Shown here in pieces: positions 4,133 to 33,379 of a stretch of 33,840 nt of DNA. The DNA is from Microcoleus sp. (lineage in GTDB: Bacteria > Cyanobacteriota > Cyanobacteriia > Cyanobacteriales > Microcoleaceae): contig JAYFMW010000009.1 of assembly GCA_042408215.1 (NCBI GenBank), forward strand, positions 1-33,840, given 5' to 3'. The first letter of the stretch is position 1; every line of letters starts with the position of its first letter. The position numbers were made by a program, and so were the translations under genes. A model generated the notes under the pieces. The model worked only from the letters and a program-made list of their open reading frames with translations. It did not search any database and had not been told where the DNA came from.

Positions 4133-7094
4133 TTACTTAGTTTTATTCTTAGTCGTTGTCGCAGTCGCCGTCTTTTTAGCAGCAGTAGTTTTCTTCGCAG
4201 CAGTTGTCGATTTCGCCGCCGTAGTCTTCTTAGCCGCAGTTTCCGACTTCGCCGCAGTAGTTTTCTTAGCAGTAGTTGTTTTCTTCGCAGCAGTTTCCGA
4301 CTTCGCCGCAGTAGTCTTAGTTGACTTCTTCGACTTGCTGCTAGATTTTCCGCCGCCCGCTGCTTCCTTCGCTGCTAACAAATCCAGTGCTTTTTGTAAG
4401 GTGAAATTCTCCACTGATTCATCCTTAGCCAAAGACGCATTGATTTCCCCGTGTTTGACGTAGGGCCCATAACGGCCATCGTAAACATTGAGGAGTTCTC
4501 CCGATTCTGGATGGGCGCCCAATTCCTTCAACGGTGTGGCTGTTTTGCTGCTTCCCCGAACGGCTTTTGGCTGGGCTAATAGTTCTAATGCCCGATCGAG
4601 GCCTATACTTAAAACATCATCAGGTGGTTTGATCGATCGATAATCCTTACCCACCTTACCTTGGTCGTGCACCACATAAGGCCCATACATCCCCAAATTA
4701 GCCTGCACCTTCGCCCCCGTATCCGGGTGAGTGCCCAACAAGCGCGGCAGAGTCAGCAAACTCACAGCCATCTCCATAGTCACACTATCTTTATCCGTCC
4801 CCTTCGGCAAAGAAGCCCGCTTCGGTTTCTTGTTAGTTTCCGACACTTCCCCTAACTGAACGTAAGGCCCATAACTACCAATCAGCACAAAAATCGGTTC
4901 CCCAGTTTCCGGGTGGAGACCCAATGTTTCCGGGCCTTCAGTTTTTTGCTTTAACAAAAACTCGACTTGTTCCGGGTCTAAATCCGCCGGCGTCAAATCT
5001 TGAGGAATCGATGCTTTTATCGGCCCTTCTTCCCTTTCAGCTTCGAGGTAAGCGCCGTATTTGCCGATACACACTTTGGCAGATATATTCTCCAATACCA
5101 CAGTGCGGGCAACTTTGGCATCAATTTGACTTTCCTGTTCTTTGACTTGAGTTGCGAGTCCAGTTTCCCCTCGATAAAACTTGTCCAAATACGGCAGCCA
5201 TTTAGCTTCGCCGGTAGCAATTTCATCGAGGGTTTGTTCCATTCTGGAAGTAAAACCGGTGTCTACTAAATCGGGAAAATATGTTTCCAATAAAGTAGTG
5301 ACAGCGAAAGCAGTGAAAGTGGGAATTAAGGCGTTGGTGATTAATTTCGCGTAACCGCGATCGACTATAGTGCCGATAATACTCGCATAGGTACTCGGAC
5401 GACCCACCCCTTCACTTTCGAGCGTTTTGACGAGAGAAGCTTCTGTGAAAGCGGGCGGGAGGCTGAGTTTCGTGGCCGATCGCCTCTAAGTCCTTACAAT
5501 TAGGTTGATCGCCCACTTTCAGTGCCGGCAAAATCACCTCTTGGTCTTCCAAAGCCGCATCCGGGTCATCGGAACCCTCCACGTAGGCCCGCAAAAAGCC
5601 GGGAAAATCGATGCGTTTCCCACTGGAACGAAAACCCGCATCTTCCACCTGAGTCAGTACCGTGACGTGAGTTTGGCGCGAATCAGCCATTTGAGAAGCG
5701 ACAGTCCGCTTCCAAATCAAATCGTAGAGGCGGAAATCAACGCCATCGAGTCCGGTTTGCTGCGGAGTCCGAAAAGTGCTACCGGCGGGACGGATAGCTT
5801 CGTGGGCTTCCTGAGCACCTTTGCTTTTGGTCGTGTATTTGCGCGGTTGGGGGCTGAGGTATTCGCTACCGTAAAGTTCTTGGACGCAACTGCGGGCTGC
5901 GGCGATCGCCTGTTCCGATAAATGCACCGAATCCGTCCGCATATAGGTGATAAAACCGCGTTCGTACAGACTTTGGGCGATTCGCATAGTTTCACGCGCA
6001 CCCAGCCTCAGCTTGCGGTTAGCTTCCTGCTGCAAAGTCGAGGTTGTAAACGGTGGCGAAGGTTTCCGGGTGACTGGCCGTTCTTCGAGATTGGTGACAG
6101 TCCAAGGTTTGTTTTGAATGCGCGAGAGTAAAGCCCGCGCCTGTGGTTCATTCAGCAAAAGTACGCGGCGGCCTGCGATAATTTGCCCGGTACTTTCATC
6201 AAAATCGCTACCGTTGGCAACTTTCACATTGCCTACTGTTACCAGTTTGGCATCAAAGGCACCCCCCTGTCCCCCCTTACCAAGGGGGGTATTGTCCGAA
6301 GCCCCCCCCTTACCAAGGGGGGTATTGTCCGAAGCCCCCCCCTTACCAAGGGGGGTATTGTCCGAAGCCCCCCCCTTACCAAGGGGGGTATTGTCCGAAG
6401 CCCCCCCCTTACCAAGGGGGGTATTGTCCGAAGCCCCCCCCTTACCAAGGGGGGGGTTGGGGGGGGTCAAAGTCGCTTTTAAATCCCAGTAGCTACCTTG
6501 GTGGAAGGCGCGGCGTTCCCTTTCCCGGCATACCAAAAGGCGCACGGCGACTGACTGCACTCTGCCGGCGGACAAGCCCCAGGCGATTTTTTTCCACAAG
6601 AGGGGCGAAAGGGTGTAACCGACGAGTCTGTCGAGAATCCGGCGAGTTTCTTGGGCTTGTACTACTCGATTGTCGATGTCGCGACAGTGAGTCAAAGCAT
6701 CGCGGATGGCTTCGCGGGTGATTTCGTGAAACACCATCCGTTTGATGGGAACTTTGGGTTTGAGGATTTGCAGCAAATGCCAGGAAATGCTTTCGCCTTC
6801 GCGGTCTTCGTCTGTGGCTAGAATCAGTTCTGTTGCTTCTTTGAGGGCTTCTTTGAGTTCTTTGACAATTTTCTTTTTATCTTTCGGGATGACGTAGAGG
6901 GGTTCAAAGTCGGCCTCCACGTTTACGCCGAGTTGCGCCCATTTTTCTCCTTTGACGGCTTCTGGTATTTCTTCGGCGGAGGATGGGAGGTCGCGCACAT
7001 GGCCCATCGATGCCTCTACACGGTAGGTGGAGGGCAGGAAGTTGCGAATGGTGCGGGCTTTTGTGGGAGATTCGACGATGACTAGGGTTGACAT
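4133..7094 (-). CDS. topA: DNA topoisomerase I, split by a 1-nt frameshift near 5448-5450
   Basis: [50 protein letters not shown]-terminal repeats and a Lys/Ala/Thr tail. Deleting one base restores [23 protein letters not shown]. Confidence 0.95.
6262..6466. repeat. In-frame 33-bp palindromic tandem array inside topA
   Basis: Unit ccccccttaccaaggggggtattgtccgaagcc; encodes PLGKGG six times, separated by five ASDNT. Confidence 0.95.
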
Positions 7095-7709: not shown

Positions 7710-7925
7710 TTAGCCGTTTGGCTGGCTTGCTTTATAGTTGTTCATCGCTTTTTGACTGAGTTCTTCTAGACCTACATCAGACCAAAGATCTTTTTGCCAA
7801 AGAGTATAATCAAACGGTTCTCGTAAGATGAGACTGATCAACTTCTCAGCTTGAACTTCTCCTAATGCGCTAACTAATGCCTCTAGTCCCTTTAGCTTGA
7901 TTTCAGTGTCAGTTATCGTATCCAT
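7710..7925 (-). CDS. Orphan putative antitoxin
   Basis: TDTEIKLKGLEALVSALGEVQAEK...EPFDYTLWQ resembles a family usually paired with PIN toxins. Confidence 0.6.
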   Translation of the reverse strand: MDTITDTEIKLKGLEALVSALGEVQAEKLISLILREPFDYTLWQKDLWSDVGLEELSQKAMNNYKASQPNG

Positions 7926-8206: not shown

Positions 8207-8710
8207 CTAACGTGCAAAATTGGGATGCTCCAGTTTAATTAAACAAGCACCTCCTTCAACGTGCTTTCTATTATTTTTATTTCCATAATAAAAATTCAAA
8301 AACAATAACACATCGTCTGGATAAGCAGAAGGCATTTTTTTTAGCATGATATTACCAGACACTGTGAAATGGTCTAAAGATGAAGGCTTTGATAATGAAA
8401 TAGTTGCTCCATTTTCAATTTTGTGAAAGGAAACACATTTCTTGATCGGCTTTTTCTGATCGCTTGTAAAGTCAGCAATCTCAACATTAATTATTGTCAA
8501 TATATTTTGATTGTTGTAAATAGCTTGAGCCGTTAACTCAAGCTGGTCATCACTTGATTTCCAAGTATAGGATACGGGTGTTTCCCCTAGCATTTGCTCG
8601 GCTTTAGGTTTTTCAAGATCATGCTCAACTTGAGATTGCTTTGCTGTCGCTCTCAATGAAAGAATTGCTTTATATCGTCTATTGGGTCGCTCTTGTTCTT
8701 TAGAAGTCAT
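8207..8710 (-). CDS. Hypothetical protein
   Basis: 167-aa AT-rich ORF with no recognised motif; a short palindromic repeat lies near its 5' end. Confidence 0.6.
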
Positions 8711-8765
8711 TGTACAGTTTCTGTTCGCTTGAGTTTTTGGGTACTTATAGTGATCGGGAAATCTG

Positions 8766-8799
8766 AAAAGAAATCCTAAGCACCATTAGGATTTCTTTT
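8766..8799 (-). terminator. Intrinsic terminator
   Basis: aaaagaaatcctaa-gcacca-ttaggatttctttt perfect stem downstream of 8867..9481. Confidence 0.75.
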
Positions 8800-8866
8800 G
8801 CGGAATTGTAACCCACTATCTACAAGTTTGTAATGCTAATTTCTAGTCTGTTTCAATCAGAGACTA

Positions 8867-9481
8867 TTAAACAACCTTGTCTAGTTCAAACCTGAATTGC
8901 GTGGCCAATGTACCACCACCACCACCACTCATAATTATGTTAGCACTGCTAATACCTAGCAAATCAAACTCTGTATTGATATCAGAGAGCACGGCGGTAT
9001 TGATTTCTTCTCCTTGTTGAACATCAGATACTACCCCGATAAAAATCCTCGGGAGAAATTGAAAAACAGCTTTTTGAGCAGGCGAAACAATCTTATGTTT
9101 GGCGAGTAATTTACCGTCTTTAAAGACATTGGCTGAGACAGAACCCAGTGACAGGTTATTCTTGAGTTCAACTTCAAATGGACTGGCTGTTGGTTCAGAA
9201 GTAAGACGAAGAATATGACCAGATTTCCCCATTTCTACTGCAAACTTATTTCCAAAGGTTGCTAACATTTTAGGCGTGTAATTACCATCACTATCTGAAG
9301 AAGAGACCTCAAATTTTGCCGGAAATACGAAGGGATGGTTACACCCCACACCACAATTAGTTATTACCTTCCAAGCAATAGCTAGCTCACCAAAATTTGT
9401 GGCTTCATTTTTTTGAAAGATTAATACTTGACTATTGGCGACATCATTTGAGTAATTGATGAAATTAAGTTGGATATCCAT
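8867..9481 (-). CDS. Beta-rich hypothetical protein, likely a conserved family
   Basis: 204 aa with AGGAG RBS. MDIQLNFINxSND...IFQKN...AWKVI...HPF matches an uncharacterised family as recalled, not verified. Confidence 0.75.
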   Translation of the reverse strand: MDIQLNFINYSNDVANSQVLIFQKNEATNFGELAIAWKVITNCGVGCNHPFVFPAKFEVSSSDSDGNYTPKMLATFGNKFAVEMGKSGHILRLTSEPTASPFEVELKNNLSLGSVSANVFKDGKLLAKHKIVSPAQKAVFQFLPRIFIGVVSDVQQGEEINTAVLSDINTEFDLLGISSANIIMSGGGGGTLATQFRFELDKVV

Positions 9482-9539
9482 GATGATTAATCAGCTCCTT
9501 TTTTTGTTTTTGTTTTGGTTTTTGTCTATTAGATGAACC

Positions 9540-10052
9540 CTATTCAGTCTCACGGATTATCCGCAAAGTTCCAAGTGTTTTGCCATCCTTGTCCGTTAGT
9601 ATGGCATCAAGAGATAAGTCCTCTTCGTCATTAAGATTAAGACTAGAGGAGGTATATACTCCACTGACTTTGTAGGATACTTGGCGCTTGGGCTTAAACT
9701 CGAACTGCATGGCGTTTCTGGTTTTTTTTCCAGTGACACTGACACTGTAGCCACGTGATAGTCCATAGGCAATCAGAGAAGCTAGGGTTAAAAGAGTGGG
9801 AATCTTCACAGCAGCTTGGATAATAGGAATCGTGACTTCATGCTCCCCATGATCGAGGGCTTGTTGATTTAAAACCTTTTCCCATTCAGATACTTGATGT
9901 GAATCCGCTACATCCACTGTGAATGGAGTCTTAGCTTGGATTTCTGGGAAGACTAGATCACCACCCTGAACGTCAGTCCATTCGATAGAGTTCAAGGAAT
10001 GCTCCTGGAGAGTTACGAAGGAATTTACTATGAGCCCTGTCATCGCTTTCAC
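9540..10052 (-). CDS. Hypothetical protein with one hydrophobic segment
   Basis: Open frame overlapping the upstream gene by 80 nt; IPTLLTLASLIAYGL segment; start uncertain. Confidence 0.55.
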   Translation of the reverse strand: MKAMTGLIVNSFVTLQEHSLNSIEWTDVQGGDLVFPEIQAKTPFTVDVADSHQVSEWEKVLNQQALDHGEHEVTIPIIQAAVKIPTLLTLASLIAYGLSRGYSVSVTGKKTRNAMQFEFKPKRQVSYKVSGVYTSSSLNLNDEEDLSLDAILTDKDGKTLGTLRIIRETE

Positions 10053-10431
10053 GACAGCACACCCAGTAGATTGTGCAGTTGGGATATGATTCCAAGATTT
10101 GACTTAGACGAAGTGGTTTATCTTCAGTGTACTTAGAGAGGTCTTGAGTCCGTTCCGTACTTCCAACTGTGTAAATACCACAATGTTCTGCAAACTCTGT
10201 TGCATACCAACAAGAATAATCATATGTAGGGTTAGGGGGAATTTCTTCCGCAACGTTGCCTCCTGGCTCGTTTCCACTCCGTAGATTATCTAGGATTTTA
10301 TGGCCATCATTGTTTGAAAGACTGGCTCCATCTGGGACGTAATACACAACTTGACTCCCTTCAGGAATCAGAAGATCGGATTTCTGATCCGACCATCTAC
10401 CACCATGAGCTGAAATTATTATGCCAGTCAT
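9973..10431 (-). CDS. Stv ('putative adhesin')-like domain protein with HG...CR motif
   Basis: IIISAHGG, IPEG..VVYYVPDG, YDY, LSQIL, IYWVCCR; GAGG RBS. Confidence 0.6.
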   Translation of the reverse strand: MTGIIISAHGGRWSDQKSDLLIPEGSQVVYYVPDGASLSNNDGHKILDNLRSGNEPGGNVAEEIPPNPTYDYSCWYATEFAEHCGIYTVGSTERTQDLSKYTEDKPLRLSQILESYPNCTIYWVCCRESDDRAHSKFLRNSPGAFLELYRMD

Positions 10432-10658
10432 AGATTAACCTCTGCATCGCTTATGAATCAATCATGCAGCTTCCCTTTCCTCAACACCAGCAAAGTTAGC
10501 AAAGTTAAGAAGAAAGTTAAGGATTTAGCACCAGCAAATCCCCAAAGCCATTCTTCATCTCAGTTTCAGATGCAGCAAGAGATTTTCATTCAGAGGTATC
10601 GATCTTAAGCAGGAAACTTTACACACTTCGTAACAAATTCCTCTGAACTTTTATTAAC

Positions 10659-10749
10659 AGGACTTACGCATTGTAACGGTGCAACAAGGCTTTGAGATTG
10701 CTTCGCTGCTCTCGCAATGACAGAATTGCGTTATCTGTGCGTAAGTCCT
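10659..10749. mobile_element. MITE with AGGACTTACGCA termini
   Basis: Perfect 12-bp inverted termini; ATTAA on both flanks. Confidence 0.8.
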
Positions 10750-10916
10750 AATTAATCAGGTTTCCAGGCGGCGCACTGAGCGTAGTCGAAGTGTCGATCG
10801 CCCTTTCCAAAAGCCATGCACACTTGATTAAGTTATATGTAAAATTACCGATCTTCACTGAAACGTCCCGTTAACCTATCTATCTACTTGGCTAACAGGC
10901 TTGCGTATATTTCCTT

Positions 10917-12359
10917 ATGCTCCAACCTCAACCGCGATGCAGAAAGACCGATATCCTTACCCAGCAAGGATTTCAGAAACTCCAAACAGCAGTATCTCAG
11001 ACAGACAATTGGAACCCTTACACCAAATCCTGTCCCTTAGAAGCCTTAAGAGAATACACTGGGCTATCGACCCATACTCTCAGCAAAGTCCACGCTCGGA
11101 AAGCAGGTGTTGATTTACGAACCCTCGTGCGCTACTTCAGCGCTTTTGACCTCACCTTGGAACCCAGCGATTATCTGTCCCCTATCCGGCATGGGGAAAC
11201 GACTGAGCCAGTTGGTGGGAGGGTAGGCACGGGGGCACTACCCCTACAAAATCCTGGTTTTCCTGAGAATGAAACAGCCCTGCTGAACAATGGCGTGAGT
11301 TGGGGTCTGGCACCGGATGTTTCAGTCTTCCACGGTCGTACCGCCGAATTAGCTACTTTGCAGCAATGGGTTCTAGAACAGCGCTGTCGTTCGATCGCTC
11401 TCTTAGGTATGGGCGGCATTGGTAAAACTTGGCTGGCGACTAAACTGGCAGAACAGGTGCAGCATGAATTTCAATCCGTCGTTTGGCGCAGTCTCCGACC
11501 GATCGCGCGATCGCACTCCCCCATGCCCTTCAGCGATTTCCTAGACGACCTGATTCGCCACCTCGCCCCCCCGTCCAACCCAACAATTCCAGAACCCATC
11601 GGCGCTAAAATGCTGCAATTGATGGATACCTTGAGACAAATACCTTGTTTGTTGGTTCTCGATAGCGTTGAATCCATTCTGCCAGGGCATACCCCACAAA
11701 CCGCTTCGAGGAATGGTTCTACAGAACAACACCCTGCTGACGATGAGACGTATTGCGAGCTTTTACGACAACTGGGACAAGGGCTACATCAAAGCTGTGT
11801 GGTGTTAACCAGCCGAGTAGAACCGAAACTGATCCAGTATATGTCAGGGGAGAATTTAGGAGTCCGTTCTTTAAGCATCCCAGGATTGCAGCTTGCAGAA
11901 ATCCAACGGATGTTTCGCACTAGAGGCTCATTCCAGTGCAAGGCTGCCGAATGGACTCGCTTAGTTGACTACTACGGTGGCAATCCCCTCATTCTAAGCA
12001 TTGTTGCCACAACCATTCAGCGTTTATTTGATGGGAGCATCACAGAATTCTTAAGACAAAACACGATGATTTTTGATGAGATTCGTGAGGTGTTAGATTC
12101 ACAGTTTGAGTGTTTGTCAGCTCTAGAGAAAGACGTGATGAGAGTTCTGGCAACCCAGGATACGCCCCTTTCATTTTCAGACTTGCGATCGCGAATTTCA
12201 CTTTCAATCTCCACAATAGTCTTGTTAGAAGCTCTGAAATCTCTGAAAGCGCGATCGCTAATCGAAAGGACGGCTGCTCATTCTGGCTTGCAACACTTCG
12301 ACGGAGCTCAGTGCACCGCCCTGCTGAGGGATTATGGGAAAGAACGTTTTGTGTTGTAG
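10917..12359 (+). CDS. HTH + NB-ARC (STAND) protein with no C-terminal repeats
   Basis: N-terminal HTH (LEALREYTGLSTHTLSKV), FHGRTAEL, Walker A GMGGIGKT, LLVLD, VLTSR, GGNPL, winged helix LKARSLIE. Confidence 0.9.
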   Translation: MLQPQPRCRKTDILTQQGFQKLQTAVSQTDNWNPYTKSCPLEALREYTGLSTHTLSKVHARKAGVDLRTLVRYFSAFDLTLEPSDYLSPIRHGETTEPVGGRVGTGALPLQNPGFPENETALLNNGVSWGLAPDVSVFHGRTAELATLQQWVLEQRCRSIALLGMGGIGKTWLATKLAEQVQHEFQSVVWRSLRPIARSHSPMPFSDFLDDLIRHLAPPSNPTIPEPIGAKMLQLMDTLRQIPCLLVLDSVESILPGHTPQTASRNGSTEQHPADDETYCELLRQLGQGLHQSCVVLTSRVEPKLIQYMSGENLGVRSLSIPGLQLAEIQRMFRTRGSFQCKAAEWTRLVDYYGGNPLILSIVATTIQRLFDGSITEFLRQNTMIFDEIREVLDSQFECLSALEKDVMRVLATQDTPLSFSDLRSRISLSISTIVLLEALKSLKARSLIERTAAHSGLQHFDGAQCTALLRDYGKERFVL

Positions 12360-26035: not shown

Positions 26036-27931
26036 ATGACAGTAGCATCCCGACAAAGCAACGCCAAAATTCTCGAATTAAAGTTGCAAAAGCACTTACA
26101 AGCAGCCGGATTTAAAGATTTGCCACTTTATATAAGTTGCGATTTTCGAGAATCATCTTTAACGGTTGTGGGAGAACACCCACGCAGTTTAGTTCTCAAA
26201 GCCAAACCGACTTTTGCTGTCCTAGAAGCAGCTATTCTGGAAATCGAACCGAAAGCTATTCAACAAATCGGACTTTGCCTAAAAATAACTGGGCAAAAAC
26301 AGCCTTACGCTTTCCATTCCTTTACCATGCACAATCCTGTTTTGTCAAGACCAAGAACAGTGGAAGTGCGAAAAAAACCTGTTGAGATACCGGCAGCAGC
26401 AGAGGGTAAAGAAGAGGGTATTGTGTTAGCAGCAACTGCGGCGGATGTGGCGGATGAGGTGCCGTTAGAAAAGGACGATCGAGATGCGGGAGTTCCAGAA
26501 TATTTTCCCGATTTGTCTGAAAGTCCCAGCTATTCGGAGCCGATCGCATTTAAAGCAGCAGCAATGTCGGCAGATATTGCTCAAAATCCCTTCGATCCGC
26601 TGGATTTGGAACCAGTGGTGACTGTCACCAAAAAACCTCAGCATTCGCCGTTGGTGCTCCTGTCTGTAGCTGGGATAGTTACTGTAGTCAGCGTAATTTT
26701 GGCCAGCGGTTTTTCTGTGCTGAGCCGCCCTTGCGTCATCGGAGAATGCACTGCATTGGATAATGCCAAACAGTTAAGTCAGAATTCGGCGAATACTCTG
26801 AGAACCTCAAAAGTTTCCAATACTCCCCTGGAAGCGCAAGAGCAATTAAAACAGGCGATCGCACTTTTAAAACCGATCCCATCTTGGTCGAGGCATTACG
26901 CTGTGGCGCAAAATGCCCTCGAAACTTACCAGGAGCAAAGTCAGAATTTAAACTCTGCGGTGGATGCGGCGCAACTGGCAGCAAAAGCCGCCCAAAAGAC
27001 TCAAAAGCCACCTCATTCTGCCGAGAGTTGGCAGTCAGCGCAAAAATTATGGGAAAGTGCGATCGGGCAACTCGAAGAAATCCCCAAAGACAGCCCAGCT
27101 TATCCATTTGCTAAGAGAAAGTTAAAGGAATACCGGACAAATTTAGCAAGTGCAAATCGGCAATTAAGCACAGAGCAAAAAGCCGAAAACCAACTGGTTG
27201 CTGCCAAAAATACAGCCCAAATAGCAGAAGCTCTCGCAGTAGTAGCTAAGTCAGCCGACAGTTGGGAAAAAGTGCAAGCAAATTGGGAAAAATCCATCGA
27301 AACGCTATCAGAAATTCCCACAGATACAAAAGCTTACCAGCAAGCTAAAGTGCTGAGTTCTAAATACGAAACCAGACTTTCACAAGCCAGCGATCGAAAA
27401 AATGTCGAAGGAATTGCCGAAGATGCCTACACTCAAGCAGTTACTTTAGCAGCTCAAGCGAAAATTTTCGAGGAGCGAAACGCTTGGTTTCAAGCATCAG
27501 AAAACTGGCGTCGAGCTTTGAGTTATGCATCCCAAGTACCTGTGGCAACTTCTTATTCCCAGAAAGCTAATCCCTTGATTAGTGCCTACAAAACTTCATT
27601 GCAGCAAGCAGAAGTTAAGTTGGAGGAAGACAGAAACTTGCAAAAAGCCCGCACTGATTTAGATAGAACTTGCAAGGGAAACCCCAAGATTTGCGACTAT
27701 ACTGTTAGCAAAGATTTGATTGCGGTGCAGATGACTCCAGATTATGTGCAGAAACTGCAACAAACTTTCATCCAAGCGGAAAACACCAATGCTACCAAGA
27801 CTCGCCAAGCTGTAGAAAAGCACGTTGAAACTCTGCAAAAAGCCTTGGAGGCGATCGGCGATAACGCCAATATTCCCATGCAAGTATACGATGGCGAAGG
27901 CAAGCGGATTGGCACTAAAACGCCAAATTAG
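26036..27931 (+). CDS. Membrane-anchored hypothetical protein with helical (TPR-like) repeats
   Basis: One TM segment; repeated W..AI..L..IP...AY..A...L..Y units. Confidence 0.8.
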   Translation: MTVASRQSNAKILELKLQKHLQAAGFKDLPLYISCDFRESSLTVVGEHPRSLVLKAKPTFAVLEAAILEIEPKAIQQIGLCLKITGQKQPYAFHSFTMHNPVLSRPRTVEVRKKPVEIPAAAEGKEEGIVLAATAADVADEVPLEKDDRDAGVPEYFPDLSESPSYSEPIAFKAAAMSADIAQNPFDPLDLEPVVTVTKKPQHSPLVLLSVAGIVTVVSVILASGFSVLSRPCVIGECTALDNAKQLSQNSANTLRTSKVSNTPLEAQEQLKQAIALLKPIPSWSRHYAVAQNALETYQEQSQNLNSAVDAAQLAAKAAQKTQKPPHSAESWQSAQKLWESAIGQLEEIPKDSPAYPFAKRKLKEYRTNLASANRQLSTEQKAENQLVAAKNTAQIAEALAVVAKSADSWEKVQANWEKSIETLSEIPTDTKAYQQAKVLSSKYETRLSQASDRKNVEGIAEDAYTQAVTLAAQAKIFEERNAWFQASENWRRALSYASQVPVATSYSQKANPLISAYKTSLQQAEVKLEEDRNLQKARTDLDRTCKGNPKICDYTVSKDLIAVQMTPDYVQKLQQTFIQAENTNATKTRQAVEKHVETLQKALEAIGDNANIPMQVYDGEGKRIGTKTPN

Positions 27932-31572: not shown

Positions 31573-31835
31573 ACCGAAAAGTGTGTCTCAACTGTTTCAC
31601 GATGGTACAGGAGTGTAACCTTGACTATCAAAGTATACTACAAGTACAAGCAAATACAAGCAAAATCCCGGTTTTTAGGAATGGAGCTCAGAAATTAAAG
31701 CCGTCCTAAAAGGCGATGTGCTGAGGGAAGTCGAAGTAACGGGGTTTTAAACCCAATTTTCTGATAAACGTTTCTGAAAAACAGTTTTGCTGCAATAATT
31801 TGCTTTGATAATGGTTGAAATTTCTGGTGTCAAGA

Positions 31836-32378
31836 GTGAATAATGTCCCCCCCCTCGACTTAAGCCGCCAATACGCCCAGATTGGCGACGAGATGGCTGC
31901 TGCGGTGCAAAAAGTGCTGGCCTCTGGTGCCTACATCGGCGGCCCGGCTGTGAAAACTTTTGAACAAGAGTTCGCCAACTACATCGGCGTTTCCGAGTGC
32001 GTGGGCTGCAACTCCGGCACCGATGCGCTGGTTTTGGCTTTGCGGGCGCTCAAAATTGGCCCTGGCGATGAAGTGATTACTACTCCTTTTACTTTTTTTG
32101 CTTCGGCTGAGGTAATTAGTGGAGTAGGCGCAACTCCGGTGTTTGTCGATATTGACTGTGCGACATTTAACATGGATGTCGATCGCCTCGAAGCTGCAAT
32201 TACCGAAAAAACCAAGGCAATTATGCCCGTGCACATCTTCGGCCAACCGGTAGACATGACTCGGTTAATGGACATAGCCAACCGCCACAATTTAGCCGTA
32301 ATTGAAGATTGCGCCCAGTCTGTCGGTGCCGAATGGCATCTCCTCAATTCCCCAAAAAACAGATTAGAAACAGTTTGA
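31836..32378 (+). pseudogene. 5' half of a DegT/DnrJ/EryC1/StrS aminotransferase
   Basis: NSGTDAL, GPGDEVIT, PVHIFGQ, IEDCAQS. Similarity stops at AEW, before the PLP-lysine motif. Confidence 0.85.
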
Positions 32379-33379
32379 TTGTTGTCGGAAGTATTACTTT
32401 ATTAGGTTTAGGAATTGTTTGGTTGCGCCCTAGTGGAATAGATATCACAAAACTAACACCTATTCAACCAACTAACGCTCAAAATATATCCCTTGCTCAA
32501 ACCCTCTCTCGTTATTTTGATCTTTTTAATTATGTTTTTTCTGTAGCATTTAGTCCAGATGGTCAGGTTTTAGCTAGTGGGAGTTTGGACAATACAATCA
32601 AATTGTGGTCAGTCGCAACGGGAAGGGAAATCAACTCTCTCTCAGGTCATTCTGATTGGGTTTGGTCTGTAGCATTTAGTCCAGATGGTAAGGTTTTAGC
32701 TAGTGGGAGTTTGGACAATACAATCAAATTGTGGTCCGTCGCAACGGGAAGGGAAATCAACTCTCTCTCAGGTCATTCTGATTCGGTTTTCTCTGTAGCA
32801 TTTAGTCCAGATGGTCAGGTTTTAGCTAGTGGGAGTCGGGACAATACAATCAAATTGTGGTCAGTCGCAACGGGAAGGGAAATCAACACTCTCAAAGGTC
32901 ATTATAATTCTGTTAAGTCTGTAGCATTTAGTCCAGATGGTCAGGTTTTAGCTAGTGGGAGTTCTGACAATACAATCAAATTTTGGTCAGTCGCAACGGG
33001 AAGGGAAATCAACTCTCTCTCAGGTCATTCTAATTCTGTTATTTCTGTAGCATTTAGTCCAGATGGTCAGGTTTTAGCTAGTGGGGGTTCTGACAATACA
33101 ATCAAATTGTGGTCAGTCGCAACGGGAAGGGAAATCAACTCTCTCTCAGGTCATTCTGATTCGGTTTGGTCTGTAGCATTTAGTCCAGATGGTCAGGTTT
33201 TAGCTAGTGGGAGTTATGACAAAACCATCAAATTGTGGTCAGTCGCAACGGGAAGGGAAATCAACTCTCTCTCAGGTTATTCTAATCATGTTAATTCTGT
33301 AGCATTTAGTCCAGATGGTAAGGTTTTAGCTAGTGGGAGTCGGGACAATACAATCAAATTGTGGAGGGTGGGAAATTAG
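32333..33379 (+). CDS. TM-anchored WD40 protein with seven near-identical repeats
   Basis: Hydrophobic segment, then seven SVAFSPDG..LASGS.D.TIKLW units with a 126-bp period. Confidence 0.88.
   Translation: MASPQFPKKQIRNSLIVVGSITLLGLGIVWLRPSGIDITKLTPIQPTNAQNISLAQTLSRYFDLFNYVFSVAFSPDGQVLASGSLDNTIKLWSVATGREINSLSGHSDWVWSVAFSPDGKVLASGSLDNTIKLWSVATGREINSLSGHSDSVFSVAFSPDGQVLASGSRDNTIKLWSVATGREINTLKGHYNSVKSVAFSPDGQVLASGSSDNTIKFWSVATGREINSLSGHSNSVISVAFSPDGQVLASGGSDNTIKLWSVATGREINSLSGHSDSVWSVAFSPDGQVLASGSYDKTIKLWSVATGREINSLSGYSNHVNSVAFSPDGKVLASGSRDNTIKLWRVGN

Follow-up and report, generated by a model that had tools for sequence, protein, structure and literature searches.

What could a STAND ATPase that ends without a sensor domain control, and what would hold it in check? 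A locus of the cyanobacterium Microcoleus sp. raises this question. It lies in a 33,840-nucleotide stretch of DNA (GenBank assembly GCA_042408215.1, contig JAYFMW010000009.1), here called the window, which is the complete contig C9 of a 7.36-Mb genome (G000). A gene for a 480-residue protein with a helix-turn-helix (HTH) domain and a STAND ATPase (10917–12359, + strand) diverges from a group of minus-strand open reading frames (ORFs), with topA flanking the locus on one side and fusA on the other. An earlier description made from the letters alone (the sequence-only reading) took this for a STAND-controlled module of one regulator and four effector genes, acting in defence, cell death or interaction. 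All five ORFs are present where it placed them. The reading we favor, at a probability of about 0.62, is that the regulator is an activator of the MalT kind, devoid of arm and sensor, which drives a slot of exchangeable genes for antagonism or interaction.

One regulator and leader, several cargo sets

Among 79 genomes of the genus, with three candidates scored per genome, seven carry an orthologue of the STAND gene. With the metagenome contigs L116 and L117 added, nine loci show six cargo sets behind an alignable leader and the same regulator. Cargo other than that of the window comprises a 373-residue protein (G005), proteins of 389 and 111 residues (G464), two DUF2589 proteins with a C39-like peptidase (G013), a 361-residue protein (L116), and proteins of 855 and 553 residues (L117). 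Candidate labels (Evf-like for G464, P47-like for G597, RhiA/RhiB-like for G005 and L116) were confirmed in no case. The leader alignment ends at the promoter or just past it. Seven of the nine loci adjoin fusA; the G013 locus lies at a different site, and the L117 contig ends within the STAND gene. GC content is 0.38–0.43 on the A+T-rich cargo side versus 0.52 in the STAND gene. Linkage across genomes thus holds for regulator and leader, kept in nine loci, but not for the window cargo, found in only four of the seven genus genomes with an orthologue. A fixed STAND–cargo system was rejected, given that cargo is swapped between strains behind one regulator. To judge from these alignments, the locus is an expression slot, with constant regulator and leader and variable cargo.

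Comparison of the leaders yielded a box consensus, CTTAA-N7-AACTT-cggTTG, on the cargo strand and abutting a sigma70 −35 element, often with a second CTTAA(C/G)TT 12–13 bp upstream. In the window, we propose an operator of repeated CTTAACTT-type boxes on the minus strand (10493–10521, with a CTTAA-N7-AACTT starting at 10509 and a further box at 10521), to which the regulator would bind. The proposed sigma70 promoter (10461–10489, minus strand) has a weak −35 (10489–10484), a 17-bp spacer and the −10 sequence CATGAT (10466–10461). A degenerate second copy of the box (10590–10625, minus strand), identified in the leader alignment, has an intact counterpart in L117 and L092. Of 35 upstream regions, 21 have the pattern CTTAA-N7-AACT on the cargo strand and 2 have it on the opposite strand (shuffled sequences: mean 0.2, maximum 2), with nine of the 21 being close kin and several having served to find the pattern. 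A −10-like xAxxxT element lies at a spacing of 17 in 20/29 non-redundant sites and of 18 in 8/29; counts at other spacings are 0–6.

For a held-out test, we took from among the 150 matches listed 20 short genes that ranked high and had not been seen before, plus 20 long ones, and scored the 900 bp upstream of each with a matrix built from five sites of other genomes (threshold score at least 12). A site on the divergent strand was seen for 12/20 short versus 2/20 long genes (Fisher P = 0.002; shuffles, mean 0.07), and none was seen on the other strand. All 12 short-gene sites have xAxxxT at 17–18 bp. Searched for by itself in 301 genomes of the order, the strict pattern turned up at 20 sites, spread over 12 genomes, and its reversed control at none. 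Nine of the 20 are faced by a gene for this HTH no more than 1.5 kb away; five of them were known before, and four are new, out of 15 previously unused sites. Every one of the seven new strict-box genomes encodes the HTH, compared to a base rate of 153/301.

The box also occurs with another class of regulator. In Pelatocladus, the three cargo genes of the window recur together with a proximal leader stretch of 140 bp and face a gene in which the HTH is joined to AAA_35, and in G015 an HTH-AAA_35 gene faces an ECF sigma factor, a TPR protein, a RhiA-like domain (98% probability) and a caspase. Both loci keep the box together with a RhiA-like gene and an HTH-AAA_35 regulator. It follows that HTH and box stay paired as the ATPase is exchanged. 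The four effectors of the sequence-only reading are thus not tied to the STAND gene, and in other phyla the family of the 204-residue cargo protein stands beside AraC or no regulator.

Searches beyond this set returned little. A class-wide search with an over-strict pattern found the box in 1 of 151 genomes, viral contigs contained no strict box, and a plasmid search with one box-bearing stretch gave no match. For the leader RNA, the minimum free energy had a z score of −2.1, with 7/200 shuffles equally good, and an Rfam search of the leader gave no match.

Its place next to a sigma70-type promoter makes it likely that the box confers transcriptional control of the cargo genes, and in the regulatory part of our reading we have considerable confidence. 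What stands of the STAND-controlled module first proposed is the conserved divergent layout with its box and promoter; what does not stand is the constancy of the cargo, which is exchanged between strains. Several observations weigh against the regulatory model. In the held-out test, kin are not independent, and the contrast between short and long genes is confounded by how similar their HTHs are to that of the query. No box precedes 14 of the 35 regulators in the first set (L093, 52% identical, is one of them) or 8 of the 20 held-out short genes. The window site is atypical (score 13.2, P = 0.01 versus shuffles of the region) and is missed by the strict patterns; four other sites in the same genome score at least 17. 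An HTH gene is lacking within 1.5 kb of 11 of the 20 strict sites (seven of these belong to a single genome), and no box adjoins five short regulators of G046, G249 and G420. The genomes of the 11 HTH-distant sites encode short HTH-ATPases elsewhere. Given these distant sites and box-less regulators, action in trans must be assumed.

G046 contains seven exact boxes (L130, L140 and L143–L147), two of them back to back between divergent TIR genes; to map a regulon that acts in trans, this genome is the best choice. G249 has a short remnant of the HTH ~2 kb from a box. In the window genome, the same HTH is fused to a LuxR-type domain (L159:8507-9253, contig C25) and to TIR and AAA_35 (L158:4635-6506, contig C1); no upstream box was found for either gene.

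An alternative is that another global cyanobacterial factor reads the box, or that the HTH-STAND protein is a repressor, with regulator and cargo merely sharing a mobile promoter region. The 11 sites remote from an HTH gene fit such a factor, as does a resemblance of the box to the Pho half-site CTTAACCT; like the Pho boxes of SphR, the boxes of the slot are repeated, contain TTAA and lie upstream of a promoter. Pho boxes are described as three 8-bp repeats with 3-bp linkers, giving a period of 11 (PMC1906773). In the slot, by contrast, the A-pair spacing is 12–13 and then 9, the consensus is CTTAAGTT..AACTTCGG, and no phosphate-uptake genes were seen behind it. Identity with the Pho box was rejected on spacing. 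The restriction of the strict box to 12 genomes, each with this HTH, and the new sites that face such a gene also speak against a different reader, and a poor −35 preceded by boxes is typical activator geometry. We regard this alternative as unlikely.

The genes behind the box

In other genomes, the box precedes homologues of the pore formers YaxA/XaxA (E = 1e-23) and SmhA (E = 1e-9), two lipoxygenases, a ricin-lectin peroxidase, and RTX-repeat, fascin, ILEI, TIR, caspase and peptidoglycan-binding proteins; this is a raw listing, which also holds many unknowns. The SmhA-like and YaxA/XaxA-like genes follow boxes at L153 and L134 (G249 and G420).

In the window, the cargo nearest the promoter consists of a 152-residue ORF (9973–10431, minus strand) and, in another frame, a 170-residue ORF with a hydrophobic segment (9540–10052, minus strand). 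The first matches the Stv domain (Pfam PF21527, E = 8e-14; 52.9 bits versus a curated cut-off of 24.2), and its residues H10, C128, C129 and R130 are invariant in 15/15 aligned sequences. A preprint (10.1101/2022.08.23.504947) describes Stv, with its His-Cys pair, as a domain that may be a toxin or a cysteine protease, making this part of the cargo a putative cysteine protease or toxin domain. Homologue comparison shows that the second ORF holds a mobile module of ~105 residues with a hydrophobic helix, plus a beta tail. In 11 of 21 homologues the two ORFs are a single gene of 292–316 codons, and the window has one extra base near 9993 relative to 4/4 sequencing runs compared. The single-copy topA gene (4133–7094) is split as well, by a frameshift near 5410–5450, and contains an in-frame series of 33-nt repeats (11-residue unit) near 6240–6480, signs that the assembly has indel errors and that repeats have invaded an essential gene. 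Given the fused homologues, the extra base and the frameshifted topA, the cargo probably comprises three genes, and four separate genes were rejected; an assembly error behind the frame split is likely, but not proven. The sequence-only reading had counted four co-oriented unknown genes. Its ORFs and their divergent layout hold up, but the gene count probably does not, and two products are no longer unplaced, one carrying the named Stv domain and another, of 204 residues, having 951 homologues.

The two parts of the first gene come apart in nature. In G362 and G376 the Stv part is cleanly absent and the C-terminal part stands alone; elsewhere the core module of 105 residues occurs alone, behind a trypsin-like protease, or before a long helical protein. 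In a structure model of a natural fused allele, most of the Stv part has a predicted local distance difference test score (pLDDT) of 80–90. A fold search with the whole fusion, rather than with the domain alone, gave no match, to caspase/CPD-like cysteine proteases or otherwise, at Z of at least 5 or E of 0.001, and a PDB sequence search with the Stv alignment gave none. Polymorphism shows an excess of amino-acid change in this gene. The ratio of nonsynonymous to synonymous polymorphism (pN/pS) is 2.8–5.3 for the C-terminal module (P < 0.003 in 5/6 pairs among four alleles, the pairs not being independent) and 2.95 for the Stv part (one pair, P = 0.024). For comparison, pN/pS of the STAND gene is 0.39–0.78, and the corresponding divergence ratio (dN/dS) of fusA is 0.05–0.06. 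This excess suggests an arms race on the first cargo gene, with an opponent that the data do not name. Two dense patches of difference from near-identical runs (9935–10046 and 10302–10383), set between identical flanks, are mosaic recombination within the gene.

The next gene (8867–9481, minus strand) codes for the 204-residue protein, and the last (8207–8710, minus strand) for a 167-residue beta protein of an unnamed family, with no family in the Atlas. An AGGAG lies 13 nt 5′ of the ATG of the 204-codon gene, and an inverted-repeat search found a perfect, A+T-rich 14-bp hairpin between the two genes (8766–8799, no strand assigned). Of the strong ribosome-binding site and terminator previously ascribed to this gene, the former corresponds to this AGGAG; the hairpin exists, but it is not listed by the terminator scan. 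It is a possible terminator or mRNA stabiliser, and may lower expression of the last gene. A metatranscriptome contig of a related allele covers 8942–10423, starts near 10443 and stops before the 167-codon gene; as it comes from one study, with contigs only, it was not used as evidence.

The 204-residue family occurs at 311 genome loci and is rare in cyanobacteria (5/401 genomes, one marginal). Databases often label it LigA dioxygenase, and an older Pfam library gave no match. In the third Atlas cluster for this protein, 10% of members carry RhiA_N (score 0.97); a tblastn search of plasmids returned no annotated rhiA, and viral contigs contained no relative. The structure model (pLDDT 83) is all-beta and compatible with the wording used for the two-lobed all-beta fold, of ~205 residues, of RhiA/PSMB. 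A fold search with it gave nothing above background (best Z 8.9 over 87 residues), the resemblance being to transthyretin-like and carbohydrate-binding sandwiches (Z 6–9, not above background). The protein is probably RhiA/PSMB-like, with RhiA homology as a lead.

Among the best 80 of the 311 loci, neighbours of the family include the 167-residue family (21/80, 18 of them outside cyanobacteria and in several phyla), a protein of ~960 residues (17/80), a tail-collar protein (14/80), and a cluster (13/80) of which two members were scanned, both being AraC regulators. The 167-residue protein is in this sense a habitual partner. At L041, L054, L077, L088 and other loci of Flavobacteria, Rhizobium and Janthinobacterium there is a conserved operon, incomplete at some loci, of AraC, the 204- and 167-residue families, a degenerate paralogue, a 220-residue protein, a 960-residue unknown protein, a tail-collar protein and a glycosyltransferase. 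Burkholderiaceae loci such as L013, L023 and L025 have three tandem 204-residue paralogues; DUF2589 pairs and a lysozyme-like gene are frequent neighbours.

Whether the cargo is directed at other organisms, be they grazers or competitors, we consider an even bet. The counterevidence is of several kinds. Ordinary-looking genes (AraC, a histidine kinase, a pseudouridine synthase, a Na/Ca exchanger) also lie behind the box; all cargo ratios versus Pelatocladus are below 1 (0.45–0.92); pN/pS of the 204- and 167-codon genes is 0.6–2.1, with no significant excess; and a Calothrix plasmid has a RhiA-like gene without a regulator of this kind. Finally, the only tested RhiA relative, PSMB1a of Pectobacterium, does not kill cells but binds small plant metabolites, namely solanidine (Kd, the dissociation constant, 0.1 µM) and salicylate, raises tolerance and aids virulence (PMC13490719).

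Regulation could accordingly be as proposed and the cargo protective or nutritional, the RhiA-like protein sequestering small toxic metabolites as part of a stress or detoxification module. Ligand binding by PSMB1a supports this, and the sandwich-like model is compatible with it. Such a role leaves unexplained the diversifying His/Cys domain, the pore-former homologues behind the box and the tail-collar neighbours of the RhiA-like family, and we think it quite unlikely.

A short STAND protein without a sensor

The regulator (10917–12359, + strand) is a proposed activator composed of an HTH (residues ~1–90), an NB-ARC with helical domain (~128–380) and a winged helix that runs to the C-terminal end. 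It scores above the Pfam cut-offs for NACHT and NB-ARC and has the STAND motifs GMGGIGKT (Walker A), LLVLDSVE (Walker B), LTSR (sensor-1 Arg) and GGNPL (GxP). Directly after the winged helix the protein ends; an arm and TPR sensor domain of the MalT/PH0952 type are not present. A Pfam scan of the window protein made no HTH call, and the assignment is at the level of the family, from the source names of relatives (XRE-family HTH) and a PF13443 match on relative P0162. The same N-terminal domain is fused elsewhere to AAA_35, TIR-AAA_35, NB-ARC-WD40 and LuxR partners. By profile search, the closest solved structure is PH0952 (E = 7e-9), with an alignment that runs through the winged helix, its second stretch being weak alone (E = 0.0095).

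A search restricted by length returned 939 relatives; the top-ranking ones have ~440–520 residues, and the family spans 450–500 residues. In 36/36 aligned relatives from this length-filtered search, the protein stops near the winged helix. An unfiltered profile search of 401 genomes placed twelve short frames on top, followed by a mixture with 1,200-residue forms. WD40 repeats were found downstream of the short genes at 0/30 loci (up to 2.5 kb scanned, four loci having less sequence), with two long controls positive. In a 36-row tree, 19 short HTH forms cluster at 93/90 support, separate from two long forms; the tree comes from a single search, is midpoint-rooted and has few long forms. The dN/dS of the STAND gene versus L092 is 0.2. 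By these sequence criteria, the short HTH-NB-ARC-winged-helix gene is a conserved sensor-less family.

Sensor-carrying NB-ARC proteins had been taken as the cyanobacterial norm, which the window genome does not bear out: a WD40 match was found in only 1 of its 14 NB-ARC paralogues (last 300 nt plus 2.5 kb downstream), in a scan for WD40 alone and in which assembly frameshifts may have shortened some paralogues. Most of the 14 are short too. Many have another conserved N-terminal domain, MxxxEVLKxAD...TGxHLDxLQ, and are candidates for a second sensor-less family.

The window allele carries a 24-nt repeat element (12294–12317, + strand; repeat search and alignment), which inserts eight residues in frame at the last winged-helix motif. 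The core of the element has 40 copies in the genome at up to two mismatches. Database relatives P0121 and P0122 share the insertion, and it is not a gap among the differences listed against the sequencing runs. There is also an N-to-S change adjacent to Walker B. The gene can be called intact in its end point and its STAND motifs, but less so in its winged helix; the insertion may impair this allele, a further point against our reading. Other repeats lie nearby. One high-copy repeat (11220–11283), seen as a spike in read depth, is part of the linker between HTH and NB-ARC. Repeat and leader alignments show two small intergenic insertions (10659–10794, no strand assigned), the larger found in none of the eight other aligned Microcoleus-type leaders and the smaller common to the window, L112 and L116.

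Could the STAND protein act directly on its neighbour, as in an NLR-like anti-phage or cell-death system with a caspase-like Stv protein? The STAND gene adjoins a His/Cys domain, a true caspase lies behind the box in G015, and cyanobacteria are given as the source of the closest Apaf-1 homologues (PMC13581612). The conserved link is, however, the promoter box, a sensor domain is absent, and Stv is missing from G362, G376 and five other cargo sets while the STAND gene stays. PADLOC (2023 library) matched only the P-loop of the regulator (35–50 residues, best E = 9e-5) and nothing in the cargo. This reading is very unlikely, and we found no support for the defence or cell-death role first suggested; interaction or antagonism is a plausible but indirect assignment for the cargo. 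That the gene is a truncated, decaying NB-ARC-WD40 gene beside unrelated horizontally acquired genes, as the C-terminal insertion, the N-to-S change and a pN/pS of 0.39–0.78 among close alleles might suggest, can for the family be largely dismissed on the shared end point, the dN/dS of 0.2, the tree grouping and the lack of WD40 downstream, the very continuation by which the sequence-only reading would have recognised a simple truncation.

Three further features of the window may be mentioned. A 71-residue gene adjoins the cargo (7710–7925), is present in G376 too, and has no Pfam match; its look is, we presume, that of an antitoxin. A WD40 ORF and, in a different frame, a fragment of a DegT aminotransferase overlap (31815–33379), a possible frameshift or fusion. 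A 631-residue ORF (26036–27931) has zero Pfam matches.

Mechanism and relation to known systems

By analogy with MalT, which acts at repeated boxes near the promoter, the activator we favor would most likely work as follows. In the ATP-bound state, its nucleotide-binding oligomerisation domain (NOD) would drive assembly, several HTH domains of the oligomer would bind the repeated boxes, and the bound complex would recruit sigma70 RNA polymerase to the weak −35. With arm and sensor absent, weak auto-inhibition, the nucleotide state, or a partner acting in trans would hold the protein in check. The window operon so expressed would supply three products: a hydrophobic module joined to a putative His/Cys protease, a beta-sandwich protein of RhiA-like type, and the 167-residue partner of the latter. 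Cargo would be exchanged by recombination at the promoter or immediately behind it. A wider picture, which we offer tentatively and lean against, is an undescribed inter-organism conflict regulon of filamentous cyanobacteria, in which one HTH, present in roughly half of the order's genomes and set on interchangeable sensor-less ATPases, would read one box and switch on a rotating arsenal of pore-former homologues, lipoxygenases, lectins, proteases and RhiA-like proteins. Equally tentative are its details, i.e. that genes are plugged in behind the promoter as in an integron, with no recombinase seen, and that the STAND switch is controlled in trans.

Many cyanobacterial HTH-STAND genes have no assigned job, and with box and promoter geometry at hand they become transcription factors that can be tested and whose regulon can be predicted. 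A STAND protein without arm and sensor also offers a direct test of why such domains are required. Should the cargo be anti-grazer, the box becomes a tag for finding protein defences of mat-forming cyanobacteria among hypothetical genes, and gives context to three families of unknown function (Stv, RhiA-like and DUF2589).

Searches of the open-access literature yielded no account of the regulator family or the box; the clade tables of PMC13581612 may contain the family. PMC11119718 goes no further than to list NB-ARC and AAA_35 as accessory domains of sigma factors. As for the cargo, Stv in the window matches its family in Pfam score and in the conserved His and Cys, but is N-terminal and fused to a mobile hydrophobic module, whereas in the preprint it was seen exclusively at C-termini. 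The rhiABC/RhiR genes of Rhizobium and PSMB of Pectobacterium resemble the slot in having an all-beta protein of ~205 residues without a known enzyme domain, in a patchy operon with its own regulator; the slot differs in its HTH-STAND regulator and other partner genes.

With Avs and bacterial NACHT proteins the regulator shares a STAND ATPase in a variable genomic region. Those systems are described as having three parts, among them an enzymatic effector and a C-terminal sensor of large size (PMC13581612 and PMC10907252), whereas the HTH-STAND protein has neither a C-terminal pattern sensor nor an enzymatic N-terminal effector. CED-4, too, is of the NB-ARC type and lacks a repeat sensor, and a partner in trans controls it; it is eukaryotic, has a CARD effector and activates a caspase directly. 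The likeness lies in the missing repeat sensor, and for the HTH-STAND protein a trans partner is only proposed. Closest are MalT, GutR, AfsR and PH0952, in which a DNA-binding domain is joined to a NOD made up of nucleotide-binding domain (NBD), helical domain and winged helix, with the HTH at the N-terminus in PH0952. In PH0952 and MalT, an arm and TPR sensor hold the protein inactive, in PH0952 by clamping the NBD (PMC6468293); the HTH-STAND protein has neither. It differs from all four in an ATPase module that can be swapped with AAA_35 and in variable accessory targets in place of a catabolic or antibiotic pathway. The slot is not Avs or bacterial NACHT, and would work in the manner of MalT, GutR, AfsR and PH0952, but with a regulator that lacks their sensor.

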